Source: a virus (taxonomy: Duplodnaviria; Caudoviricetes). Taken from it: 64,000 bases of DNA. Positions 11,253-49,881 of this stretch are shown piece after piece; position 1 is the stretch's first letter, and each line of letters opens with the position of its first letter. The notes under the pieces were generated by a model. That model had not been told where the DNA came from, made no database searches, and saw only the letters and a list, made by a program, of their open reading frames with translations. A program made the translations under genes and the position numbers. The stretch lies in IMG/VR virus record IMGVR_UViG_3300031414_000005. One strand, given 5' to 3'.

Positions 11253-12962
11253 ATGGATAAGAAGCAAGACTTACCTTCCAATGACCTGACCCAAGGTTTA
11301 GATGTTCCGCAGACGGCCGACGACGATTCCAACTGGGGGGCAGAACCCATTGAGAGTCAGACCCCGACCGTCACCGAACCTATCCCCGCTGAAGTCGCGA
11401 AACCACCGGCAGCGAAAACACCCGACGCTGACGAAGGGGACGGTGAGGACGATCAACCCAGCATCGAGATCACTCTGCTGGAAAACCTCAGCGATGAATC
11501 AAAGAATGTCCAAGTTTTCCTGGACACAAAATTTGATAAAAGCTGGCAGGATTTTGTCTGGATGCTGGCCCCGTATAAGCAGGATGACATTGTCGCCTTG
11601 CTGGGTCGCCTGAATCCTGAGGTGGAAACCTACGACGAAGCTTTCTTCAACAAGATCTTCGCGAACCGCACCCAGGAAGAGATCACCAACTTCTTCTTGA
11701 ACATGGCGCAGGCAATCAATTTCGTGTATCCGGGTAAAGGCCTGGAGGGCCTGGTTGCTGATCCTGAGGCGGCCTTCGCCAACGGGGTGGTATATAAAGG
11801 CAAGATAAAAGAACCGTCTGCTGCCGGTACCCTGTTTGACGAAACGAAAGACGAGAACAAACCGGGGGCGTATCTGTCTGCCCTGGCGGCGGTGGCGCGT
11901 TATCGTCAGCTGACCGAGAAAGGTGAGTTTCAGGATATCTGGCTTCCCCTGACCGGTTGTCAAATCCGTATGTCCATTGCAGGTGATGACGAACACATCA
12001 CGCTGAACGAAACGATCTCCAAAGAGATTGCCACGATCGGCCGTCGTACCACCGGTGCGGTGTTCTCGAACACCAATATCCTGGTTGAACGTGCGTGTGT
12101 GGATTTCATCCTGAGCCGGGTTACCCGTACGTCGCTGTCGTGCGGGCCGAATAAAGATAAGCTCAAAGAGCTGATCGCGGCACCGGACATTGACTTCTTG
12201 CTGACCAAGTACGCGGCTGGCCGGTTCTCGCGCGGTTACCCACTGCGGGTGATCTGTAACGCCAGTGATGCTTGCCATCATGAAGAAGAGCACGCGGTTG
12301 ACCTGAACAAGTTCATCTGGGTGGCTAACGGTCGCTTAACGGAAACACAGCGTGCCATGGCGTTCCGTAAACCGTCAGAGATCAAAGATGGCGATGTGAC
12401 GTACTACCAGAAAGAACACCGCTGGCACCAGTACAAACAAGTCACACTGTCCACGGGCTTGATCATCCACCTCAAAGTTCCAACCTATACCGAGAAAGAA
12501 AAAGGCGGTATCGAGTGGATCGAGAAGCTGGAGAACATGGCCCAGATGGCGCTGGACAACAGCTACAATGCCAAACAGCGTGAAGACTTCATCAAACGCC
12601 AGGCCGCTGCCACGTCACTGTATCAGTACCTGCCGTGGATCGAGAAGCTGGAAATCCCATCCGGTGCCGAAGGTTCAGAAGGCTATTACGTGGAAGGCGA
12701 TGCGATGCGTCAGACCCTGGTGGAGCTTAACCAGGAACCCGTGGAACGTAATGAACTGTTTGACAAAATCAACGAGTTCATCAACAACGCCCTGGTGGGG
12801 GTCATCGGTTATCCACGTTGGGCCTGTGGCGAGTGCAAAGGTTTGCAGCCTGAGCGCAGTGAAGTGATCCCGGCGATTTGGCCGATCAATGCGCTTCACA
12901 CTTTTTTTACCCTGATTACCAATGGGATCCGAAGGAATCTGCGGGACGCCGACATCTACTGA
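11253..12962 (+). CDS. Putative baseplate hub/tail assembly protein (T4 gp26-like), Zn-binding
   Basis: AGGAG RBS; 569 aa; acidic disordered N-terminus; Cys clusters CNASDAC and CGEC; the functional call is inference. Confidence 0.55.
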   Translation: MDKKQDLPSNDLTQGLDVPQTADDDSNWGAEPIESQTPTVTEPIPAEVAKPPAAKTPDADEGDGEDDQPSIEITLLENLSDESKNVQVFLDTKFDKSWQDFVWMLAPYKQDDIVALLGRLNPEVETYDEAFFNKIFANRTQEEITNFFLNMAQAINFVYPGKGLEGLVADPEAAFANGVVYKGKIKEPSAAGTLFDETKDENKPGAYLSALAAVARYRQLTEKGEFQDIWLPLTGCQIRMSIAGDDEHITLNETISKEIATIGRRTTGAVFSNTNILVERACVDFILSRVTRTSLSCGPNKDKLKELIAAPDIDFLLTKYAAGRFSRGYPLRVICNASDACHHEEEHAVDLNKFIWVANGRLTETQRAMAFRKPSEIKDGDVTYYQKEHRWHQYKQVTLSTGLIIHLKVPTYTEKEKGGIEWIEKLENMAQMALDNSYNAKQREDFIKRQAAATSLYQYLPWIEKLEIPSGAEGSEGYYVEGDAMRQTLVELNQEPVERNELFDKINEFINNALVGVIGYPRWACGECKGLQPERSEVIPAIWPINALHTFFTLITNGIRRNLRDADIY

Positions 12963-13405: not shown

Positions 13406-13413
13406 TCAGATTG

Positions 13414-13431
13414 GGAGGGTTTCGGCCCTCC
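13414..13431 (+). terminator. Hairpin/weak terminator
   Basis: GGAGGGT-TTCG-GCCCTCC followed by TAATTTT. Confidence 0.55.
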
Positions 13432-13473
13432 TAATTTTATGCTCTCTTACACATCTTCTAATGGATACCTCTC

Positions 13474-13677
13474 ATGTCAGATAAACAACCCACTGTAATT
13501 TATGGCGGGAAACTGCCTCACTATTTGGCCCGTCCCGTTGAAGTGAACGGGGTGCGTTATGACGACGTCGTGGGAGCGTCGATTGCCATGGGGTCGACGA
13601 TTAAGCAGACCCTTAGCGATTTGTATTCCCATGCTATACCAGGCGTGCATTTTATTCAGAGTACGTCACCGCAGTAA
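13474..13677 (+). CDS. Small protein with NUMOD1-like DNA-binding motif
   Basis: 67 aa; PVEVNGVRYDDVVGASIAMG resembles the V.G..Y.S...A...LG motif; GGAT RBS. Confidence 0.45.
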   Translation: MSDKQPTVIYGGKLPHYLARPVEVNGVRYDDVVGASIAMGSTIKQTLSDLYSHAIPGVHFIQSTSPQ

Positions 13678-13681
13678 CTTT

Positions 13682-13797
13682 GGCTGTGTTTGCAGCCGGA
13701 TAACTCTTCAGGCCACACACAGGAACCAGTTTGATGCATCCGCATCAAAAGAGGTGATCAATACCACCTCGCACCCATAACCTGTAAGAGGATATCC
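13682..13797 (+). ncRNA. Candidate structured cis-regulatory RNA leader
   Basis: Closing stem 13698-13712/13781-13797 encloses hairpins 13730-13749 and 13751-13770; an extra hairpin at 13682-13697; the stem pairs the AAGAG part of the RBS. Confidence 0.5.
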
Positions 13798-13799
13798 TT

Positions 13800-14360
13800 A
13801 TGAGTCAGAAGAACGTGTTGAACGAAAACAAAGAGCCAGCTTCAGCTGATCCGGAAAAAACTCAGAACGAAACACCGCCTGAGTTCCGTGGTAAATCCGA
13901 AGCAGACCGCCGTGAGAGCGATCTGCATTCTGATTCCATCAGCGAAGAGCAAGCTCGTCAGCTGAATGCTTCTGCTACTGGCGCCGCAGCTCCAGCTGCT
14001 TCAGGTGCCGGCCGTCCAGACATCACCAACGTGACCCCGGATACCTCCGGTTCGATCGACCGTGGTGCCCTGAACGCCGATGCCGCAGGTGTGCCGTGTG
14101 ACGCCTCTCAGGACAACCGTACTGATGAGGAAAAACGCCGTGACATCAATCAGGAAAACTACGAAGGCCGCAATGCCGACGTCCACCCTGATTCGCCCGT
14201 GCAGCCCGGTAGCCGTGACCGCATCGACGAAGCCCAGCGTGACGCTGAACACCCGGATCACTCCGATGAACAGCAACGTGCTGCGCAGACCCAGCAGACT
14301 GACGAACCGGCTCAGTCCGAAAACGCTCAGAACCATAACGAGCAGAACAAAGACCAATAA
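13800..14360 (+). CDS. Highly hydrophilic, intrinsically disordered protein
   Basis: 186 aa rich in D/E/Q/N/A/P, very few hydrophobic residues; high-expression codon bias. Confidence 0.75.
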   Translation: MSQKNVLNENKEPASADPEKTQNETPPEFRGKSEADRRESDLHSDSISEEQARQLNASATGAAAPAASGAGRPDITNVTPDTSGSIDRGALNADAAGVPCDASQDNRTDEEKRRDINQENYEGRNADVHPDSPVQPGSRDRIDEAQRDAEHPDHSDEQQRAAQTQQTDEPAQSENAQNHNEQNKDQ

Positions 14361-14405
14361 TAGTGGTTTGGGCTAGGAGTGTCTGAACCCGTAACCCAAT
14401 GAGGA

Positions 14406-15260
14406 ATGATCATGGCTGATAAAGACGCATCCAAACAGTCTAACGACAATGGTGACGTAACTAAGCAGGAAAACGCGAGCGCTGGCGACGTACAGAAGTC
14501 AGTGAGCGATGGCAAAGAAACGTCATCAATCAACGTGGACCCGAACGCTGCGCTGGAAACGTCCAAGGACAATAAAACGGCTCAGTCTGCTTCCACGGCA
14601 GACCAGACGTCACCGGCTAAAGGTGGTAACACCAACGCCGGTACCGGGCAGGACTACGTCGCACCGGACTCCGATGACAAATCCAAAACCGCAGACGAGA
14701 AAAAGCGTGCTGCGTCTGGAGATGACACTCCGAATGCCGCTCCAGCGGATTCGGAAGAAGGTGGTGATGAAGAGCCCCCGACAGTGATTGAGCTGACCAA
14801 ACTGGTTGCGGATTCCTCTTCGGTTTCAGACACCCTGGTGAAAAGTTTCGAAGAGCGTCTGGATAAGTACATCACCGAGATGGCGCCGCGTAAACCGATT
14901 TCAATGGAAGATGCAGCGCGTAACCAGGTTTACCTGTGGGACACGTTGTCACTGATGTTGGATCTGTCACCGCAGGCGTTTGGCAAAGTGATGGACATGA
15001 CGTTGGCGAAAATCAAAGAGAACGCTAAGGGTGCCTTTGGCGCGACGTACATTCGTCGTGGCTTTGAGCGTATGGATGCTGCCTTAACCGGTAAACGTCG
15101 TCTGGCGTTTGATCTGTACCTCAACCTGCTGACTCAGTATGCCACGTTGGAAAACAAATCCCGTCTGAACAAGTTTGTTGACTTGCCTCGCACGGCAGAA
15201 GCGTTTTCTGATCCCAAGCATCAACAGCGTGTCCTGACGTACTTCGGTTCATTCCGCTAA
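14406..15260 (+). CDS. Protein with disordered acidic N-terminus and helical C-domain (probable virion-associated)
   Basis: GAGGA RBS; 284 aa; low-complexity first ~125 aa. Confidence 0.75.
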   Translation: MIMADKDASKQSNDNGDVTKQENASAGDVQKSVSDGKETSSINVDPNAALETSKDNKTAQSASTADQTSPAKGGNTNAGTGQDYVAPDSDDKSKTADEKKRAASGDDTPNAAPADSEEGGDEEPPTVIELTKLVADSSSVSDTLVKSFEERLDKYITEMAPRKPISMEDAARNQVYLWDTLSLMLDLSPQAFGKVMDMTLAKIKENAKGAFGATYIRRGFERMDAALTGKRRLAFDLYLNLLTQYATLENKSRLNKFVDLPRTAEAFSDPKHQQRVLTYFGSFR

Positions 15261-15263
15261 GCC

Positions 15264-15292
15264 AAAAAAAGGGAGAGGCGCAAGCCTCTCCC
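15264..15292. terminator. Bidirectional terminator, copy 1 of an identical 22-bp hairpin
   Basis: A7-GGGAGAGGC-GCAA-GCCTCTCCC between convergent genes. Confidence 0.85.
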
Positions 15293-20009: not shown

Positions 20010-20081
20010 GCATGTTCCTTATTTACAGACATGAGAAGGCCGATGTTATAGTCGAGCATAAAATGAACGAGTCTGAGCCTT

Positions 20082-30036: not shown

Positions 30037-30068
30037 GGGGAGTCCGCTGCGGCGGGCTCTCCTATTTT
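30037..30068 (+). terminator. Intrinsic terminator
   Basis: GGGGAGTCCGC-TGCG-GCGGGCTCTCC + TATTTT. Confidence 0.7.
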
Positions 30069-30101
30069 ATGCCCTTCTGCTAACCCTGTTGAGATAACCC
30101 C

Positions 30102-41999: not shown

Positions 42000-42015
42000 C
42001 TATATTACCGTGGTG
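42000..42015 (+). promoter_or_regulatory. Early phage promoter CTATATTAC-N4-GTG
   Basis: Exact TATATTAC core (phiKZ early consensus), heading an accessory cluster; TTTAA 20 nt upstream. Confidence 0.7.
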
Positions 42016-43447: not shown

Positions 43448-43855
43448 ATGAAAAACGTAAACGAGCATAAAGCCCGTATCAAACAGGATCTGCTGGCAGC
43501 TATCCAGTGGATGACCACGGACCCCATGATCAACATGCGGGATCAGATGGTATTGTTTGGCGGCGAAGCATCACGTATGCAACCCACTGCGCCTGTCTCC
43601 ACGGTTCGTGGCAATATCTACATCAATGCCACCGAAGTCAAACTGTTCTTAAACGCCAACAGCCACGGCGACTGGGAACTGATGATGGATGTCATCCGGG
43701 AGTCACAAAGCGACTTGTTCGCGGCGTACAACCACAGCCCGCTGCGTGACATGACGTATATGTCCCACGGCCAAACCTGGACGGAATATCACTTTGCCTA
43801 TAAAGACAGCAATGTCGAAGACCGTAACGCCGCGCCCGTACCAACCTATTTCTAA
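43448..43855 (+). CDS. Hypothetical protein
   Basis: 135 aa; AAGGA RBS. Confidence 0.7.
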   Translation: MKNVNEHKARIKQDLLAAIQWMTTDPMINMRDQMVLFGGEASRMQPTAPVSTVRGNIYINATEVKLFLNANSHGDWELMMDVIRESQSDLFAAYNHSPLRDMTYMSHGQTWTEYHFAYKDSNVEDRNAAPVPTYF

Positions 43856-49865: not shown

Positions 49866-49881
49866 CTATATTACCTACGTG
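49866..49881 (+). promoter_or_regulatory. Early phage promoter CTATATTAC-N4-GTG
   Basis: Exact TATATTAC core upstream of the operon containing the nvRNAP subunit. Confidence 0.7.

Follow-up and report, generated by a model that had tools for sequence, protein, structure and literature searches.

What precedes a gene for a 186-aa protein in a probable nucleus-forming jumbo phage is, judging from how its helices have changed between relatives, a selected plus-strand RNA structure. The reading that explains it best is a cis-acting, default-OFF translational attenuator of that gene inside a late operon, to which we give a probability of about 0.5. The folded leader occupies the 122-nt gap between a 67-aa ORF and the 186-aa ORF (Table 1). 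The window, by which we mean the whole stretch of 64,000 nt that was analysed, lies in a virus record that is complete at 232,948 bp (233 kb). We consider the phage a probable nucleus-forming jumbo phage because it encodes phiKZ-type RNA polymerase genes (39% identity to the nearest isolate) and a homologue of chimallin (E 1.5e-8).

Table 1. Coordinates of the leader elements and neighbouring features (positions of the window unless a locus is named).
Feature	Position	Strand	Remarks
Intrinsic-terminator-like hairpin ending the upstream 569-aa/112-aa unit	13410-13437	+	folds in window and L004, conserved
Late-promoter-like motif TTTATGCTC	13436-13444	+	invariant in L004-L008; TATG at 13438-13441
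67-aa ORF	13474-13677	+	called in all related loci; stop codon 4 nt before the element in all relatives
5' hairpin, 6 bp, 4-nt loop	13682-13697	+	pair probability 0.92-1.0
Anti-Shine-Dalgarno strand, 5' arm of 14-bp closing helix	13698-13712	+	from the MFE structure
A/C-rich junction strand	13713-13729	+	invariant except 1-nt indel; carries a GGA
Inner hairpin, 8 bp, variable 4-nt loop	13730-13749	+	
Inner hairpin, 6 bp, invariant 8-nt loop (13757-13764)	13751-13770	+	invariant in all relatives
Second A/C-rich junction strand	13771-13780	+	start of ACCCRTAACC (13773-13782)
Closing-helix 3' arm, includes Shine-Dalgarno AAGAGGA (13786-13792)	13781-13797	+	
Gene behind the leader: 186-aa acidic protein, predicted disordered	13800-14360	+	
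284-aa protein, acidic N-terminus and C-terminal phiKZ gp81-family domain	14406-15260	+	PHROG hits; last gene of the unit
gp81-family leaders with their own structures	L003 6766-6855; L248 1792-1891; L249 2754-2800; L251 2555-2638		

An earlier note on this DNA had drawn four helices in the gap. All four are present, each segment where it had been placed, and the RNAfold-type check that the note proposed returned a minimum free energy (MFE) structure for 13675-13810 that matches its model exactly. This structure has an energy of -44.9 kcal/mol (z -4.80, with none of 200 shuffles equally good) and ranks 6th among the genome's 261 upstream regions; inspection showed a terminator hairpin in four of the five regions that outrank it and a weak start call in the fifth. 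The note had the Shine-Dalgarno (SD) covered by the closing helix. Five of its seven bases (AAGAG, 13786-13790) are indeed paired, but the GA falls within an internal loop, and the ATG is unpaired. Probabilities of 0.9-1.0 apply to almost every pair in the three hairpins, and those of the closing helix reach only about 0.67 in the window and 0.37 in the diverged relative, L004. The helix encloses two firm arms; a third, of 2 bp at 0.5 probability, is absent in L004. Within 0.6 kcal/mol in both phages lies a second fold, in which ACAGG (13719-13723), part of the first junction strand, pairs with 13781-13785. In it, the SD is taken up in a hairpin of 4 bp, the partner of the anti-SD strand is the early coding region, and the start region is again closed; one pair of this fold is broken in L005. 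The predicted cost of clearing the ribosome footprint at 37 °C is near 11 kcal/mol for either phage; clearing the SD alone would take only 2.7-4.7 kcal/mol.

We compared the leader with those of four near-identical strains (L005-L008) and of L004, whose proteins are 65-80% identical. The leader is 89.3% identical in L004, and four-fold degenerate (synonymous) sites are 50.7% identical. Because other intergenic stretches nearby are also 78-91% identical, the conservation of the leader's sequence is not distinctive taken alone. Thirteen substitutions separate the two leaders; seven fall in stems and all seven keep pairing: both partners are altered in two pairs and only one partner in three, with a G-U pair on the plus strand involved in each one-sided change. 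The 5' hairpin has undergone a C-G to U-A double change and a U-G to C-G change in L004, and the 8-bp inner hairpin an A-U to G-C double change and a G-C to G-U change. In the closing helix, 13 of the 14 pairs are invariant, one A-U pair has become G-U and there is no double change; the anti-SD strand is identical at 14 of 15 positions despite being non-coding. When substitutions were placed at random, the probability of no broken pair was 0.016, falling to 0.002-0.003 with the two double changes added, and a column-shuffle control with little power was not significant (58/500). The comparison with L004 is a fair test because L004 played no part in predicting the structure; the covariation test rests on one independent lineage. 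It is because all stem substitutions preserve pairing, double changes and plus-strand G-U pairs included, that we regard the structure as selected. RNA of the plus strand is favoured since the one-sided changes, G-U there, would be A-C on the minus strand. The loops of the first two hairpins vary (that at 13730-13749 differs in L004 and L005), whereas the junction strands are near-invariant (one indel, one substitution) and the third hairpin and its 8-nt loop fully invariant. Two loops free to vary beside fixed junctions and a fixed third loop are as expected of a recognition surface.

The earlier note treated the element as a 5' leader; it probably lies mid-operon instead. Late transcription in phiKZ follows a TATG consensus with G as +1, which is necessary and not sufficient (PMC4666361). 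The motif TTTATGCYC has four exact genome copies, all inside the window (13436-13444 (+), 20054-20062 (-), 30066-30074 (+) and 43463-43471 (-)) against 0.67 expected there. Three of the four stand 28-45 nt upstream of a gene start, in the structural region, and the motif is likely an extended late-promoter motif. The alignment of the relatives holds no conserved TATG between the copy at 13436-13444 and the start codon at 13800. We infer a late transcript start at G13441, which would make the element intercistronic and put the anti-SD strand on the mRNA. The operon would then run from this start through the 67-aa ORF, the element, the 186-aa gene and the gp81-like gene to a terminator hairpin at 15271-15292. 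As an internal promoter, TTCAGGC at 13707 found no support; it lies 9 nt after a hairpin without a U-tract. The same heptamer directly follows terminator-like hairpins at eight genomic places (15295, 34322, 43900, 45215 (-), 49827 and three outside the window). Separately, a phiKZ-type early promoter core, TATATTAC, occurs in seven copies on one strand (42001-42008, 49867-49874 and five outside the window), and a T-run at 12902-12908 is kept in the diverged relative (L004 1264-1271).

The genes of the unit are little characterized. The 67-aa ORF has no Pfam match and weak NUMOD1/I-TevI-like DNA-binding features (Atlas leads of 0.85-0.87 only); it is 64% identical to L004 at the nucleotide level, with its first 20 nt and last 10 nt conserved. 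The 186-aa protein has no PHROG or Pfam match, Atlas values of pTM 0.14 and pLDDT 0.47, and only two known 90% clusters. A chain of homologues ties the 284-aa protein to PA1C and PhiPA3 genes annotated gp081-like; its direct alignment to phiKZ gp81 is weak (E 0.018). Because RAY gp281 and phiKZ gp81 are each a single protein whose N-terminus is long and acidic, the 186-aa and 284-aa pair may be a split or duplicated version of a single gp81-type protein, although alignable similarity is absent. The two ORFs (13800-15260) are in the same frame with three stops between them. Fusion by stop-codon read-through was rejected, three stops being present in both the window phage and L004.

According to the attenuator reading, the fold would be the default OFF state, limiting or delaying synthesis of the disordered 186-aa protein. 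Repression of the SD by the leader is likely on the folding model; the helix at the core of the attenuator shows no double change and is 0.37-0.67 populated. In chimalliviruses, mRNA must be exported from the nucleus for translation, and ChmC binds near start codons, internal ones included (PMC11077065). A co-transcriptional window is unlikely because export has to precede translation; a late mRNA would, in a weaker step of the argument, leave the phage nucleus already folded and with no such window for ribosome loading. Opening could be brought about by a protein that reads the invariant junction strands and the 8-nt loop, or the marginal closing helix could open by breathing, the linker rich in A and C serving as a ribosome standby site. 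Of the three kinds of switch offered in the earlier note, a protein-binding leader is the likeliest.

The same architecture could serve the message rather than the ribosome. If the mRNA were cut near the upstream stop, the 5' hairpin and the fold might protect the downstream message as a processing or stability element, with SD pairing incidental or only slightly dampening. Covariation is seen in the hairpins and not in the SD helix, the 5' hairpin keeps a constant distance of 4 nt from the upstream stop even with an indel of 27 nt immediately ahead of it, and a location in mid-operon and linkers rich in A and C agree with this role. A stabiliser would have no need, however, for an anti-SD strand, junctions and an 8-nt loop that do not vary, and the start region is closed in both low-energy folds; we consider this explanation unlikely.

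For an attenuator opened by a protein, three features serve as leads to the binding site: the motif ACCCRTAACC, the invariant junctions with the loop, and a candidate pseudoknot. The motif lies 3-4 nt before the SD of both the 186-aa gene and the next gene (13773-13782 and 14387-14396), which are two of its six genomic copies. The pseudoknot would pair the 8-nt loop (13757-13764) over 7 bp with coding-region positions 13815-13821; its seven pairs are invariant, with no covariation, and by a rough estimate about 0.15 such matches are expected by chance, which is not significant. The gap before the gp81-like gene (window 14361-14405; L004 2786-2836) is also conserved, with a 9-bp hairpin whose 7-nt loop keeps AGGA as its three other bases change, followed by ACCCGTAACC and an SD, echoing the 3' end of the main leader; its fold is not above chance (z -0.35). 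A more specific proposal, which we hold to be rather improbable, is a gate tied to the phage nucleus: the mRNA would be exported folded shut, and a phage protein would bind the invariant junction and loop and open or lock it. The gp81-family product, the 67-aa neighbour or a ChmC-like chaperone would be candidate binders, perhaps at the ACCCRUAACC of both downstream leaders. If true, a chimallivirus would have a specific circuit for post-transcriptional control, and we found no description of one.

The earlier note called the leader a translational switch and named an alternative pairing, CTGTGT in the 5' hairpin with ACACAG. What holds is a selected mRNA-strand structure that occludes the ribosome-binding site (RBS); the named pairing is not supported as its switch. 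The 6-bp complementarity exists in the window, but two of the six pairs are mismatched and a third weakened in L004. Because the resulting fold lies 7 kcal/mol above the minimum (equilibrium probability about 1.5e-4) and two of the six pairs are lost in L004, the pairing is not a conserved switch; the substitutions indicate that selection retained the 5' hairpin at its expense. We found no conserved SD-open fold in the window and L004: both conserved low-energy folds are closed, and the open fold is strain-specific. These results bear on an MS2-like kinetic trap, in which the nascent 5' domain would hide the anti-SD strand for a short translation window. In the window strain the alternative fold is the minimum for a nascent chain of 50-110 nt and the best SD-open state, and the topology matches the MS2 leader (PMC4615214). 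The advantage over the hairpin is only 2-3 kcal/mol, however; the nascent chain of L004, with those two pairs lost, has a centroid that keeps the 5' hairpin and a different marginal fold in 1-3% of the ensemble, and with transcription in the nucleus there would be no race with the ribosome, so we regard the trap as quite improbable. Unmasking by a ribosome halted at 13675-13677 was also rejected, as the start region stays closed when the first hairpin loses its 5' strand.

We give similarly little credence to a host CsrA/RsmA target, in which the repressor would bridge the junction ACAGGA and the GGA of the SD. Three GGA are invariant (13698, 13722 and 13790), one of them overlapping the SD, and the AGGA kept in the hairpin loop of the next gene's leader, where three other loop bases change, would fit. 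This leader has no GGA in a hairpin loop, however, GGA is expected in any SD and in a second partner strand, the phage encodes no CsrA, and the pattern was noticed after the fact. That the transcript releases a small RNA which acts in trans has a low probability: a closed 100-nt domain with invariant loops and the UTR-derived small RNAs reported in phiKZ and 201phi2-1 (PMC10914365, PMC11512511) speak for it, but the element has no plus-strand terminator or U-tract after it and no promoter motif of its own, and its 3' arm is the next gene's SD.

A thermometer or metabolite riboswitch, both raised in the earlier note, is very unlikely. The SD is sequestered, and a three-way junction with invariant linkers could be a ligand-junction feature, the invariance being that of just two diverged sequences. 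The anti-SD strand CUCUU pairs by Watson-Crick rules, though, with neither a fourU nor a ROSE U(U/C)GCU opposite the SD, and the predicted opening cost drops smoothly from 11.2 to 8.1 kcal/mol between 37 and 50 °C. Also against these readings stand the lack of an Rfam match and of conserved, mutually exclusive SD-open and SD-closed folds; the downstream genes are neither metabolic nor heat-shock genes. Nearly negligible is an element of the minus strand or of the DNA itself, for example one that terminates antisense read-through: the minus strand folds equally well in the window (z -4.9) and the 13751-13770 hairpin plus T run is called terminator-like on it, but all three one-sided changes are A-C mismatches there, the 5 terminator calls compare with 3.1 expected in shuffles, and one hairpin only would be accounted for.

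We searched for relatives of the element. Rfam 15 gave no match at the gathering score, nor on the element at E 10, in the window or L004, in line with the earlier note's failure to place it in a known family, and ARAGORN called no tRNA. A covariance model detected no second copy in the phage's own genome and no match at the gp81 loci of RAY, AH06, SA002, Proteus phage 10, SNUABM_37, RTH11, RP12, PA1C, PhiPA3 and phiKZ. No further homologue was recovered by blastn in phages or by protein-seeded scans, and P0002 was the sole close match in a profile search. A DNA-pattern search of viral and metagenome contigs yielded no homologue; its hits failed the covariance model, and 14-mer pattern hits were taken as chance. 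In the collections searched, only two phage species, both uncultured, carry the element. It is real, undescribed and narrowly distributed, a cis RNA structure whose general kind is familiar. Its weight is limited in that the gene's protein has no assigned function and RBS-sequestering leaders are familiar. Nucleus-forming phages part transcription from translation, so their late mRNAs should escape the usual bacterial race in which folding competes with ribosome loading, and a compact, selected element that closes an RBS would offer a small unit for studying chimallivirus translation control after export.

Several known systems share parts of this design. T4 gene 32, rpsO/S15 and the CsrA targets are protein-controlled translational operators. 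Like them, the leader combines structure with invariant single strands beside the RBS, and possibly a pseudoknot into the coding region; no motif shared with these operators tested positive. The UTR-derived small RNAs of phiKZ and 201phi2-1, such as sRNA005 and sRNA-gp182, arise from a promoter followed by premature termination (PMC11512511, PMC10914365). They too are structured, conserved non-coding elements before a chimallivirus late gene, but our element lacks a plus-strand terminator and overlaps the SD; sequences were compared via Rfam only. The gp81-family leaders of RAY, AH06, SA002, pEa_SNUABM_37, phiKZ and PhiPA3 share the gene neighbourhood, but they have different folds and no covariance-model match, and they are not homologous as far as testable. 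That of RAY forms a 12-bp hairpin (z -4.9 to -6.1), and those of SA002 and SNUABM_37 a hairpin that covers the SD and includes CCTATG. In several of these leaders TAACC stands before the SD; in phiKZ this does not exceed chance. At a distance of two or three genes on the upstream side of the gp81 homologue (L003 4763-4871, L249 625-775, L250 594-738, L251 411-561), RAY, SA002, Proteus phage 10 and SNUABM_37 carry a near-identical, unannotated 25-nt intergenic motif with a small hairpin and the core GTCTCGTTAGCG...GCTCGCTA.

The 5' UTR of the MS2/Levivirus maturation gene was reportedly described by Groeneveld in 1995 and van Meerten in 2001. It has a 5' hairpin, an anti-SD strand directly 3' of it, enclosed arms and a long-distance SD helix (PMC4615214). 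By prediction our leader has the same order, from 5' hairpin through anti-SD strand and enclosed arms to a long-range SD helix, and in the window strain a nascent alternative fold can form. It differs in having two firm arms rather than the three of a cloverleaf and no sequence kinship, and the transient metastable fold that hides the anti-SD strand is not conserved. The setting is also unlike that of a Levivirus: a dsDNA nucleus-forming phage with RNA polymerase and chimallin genes, in which transcription is expected to be uncoupled from translation, and a position in mid-operon instead of before a maturation gene. By analogy, the best reading is that the leader would work like the final state of the MS2 leader without being a member of its family.
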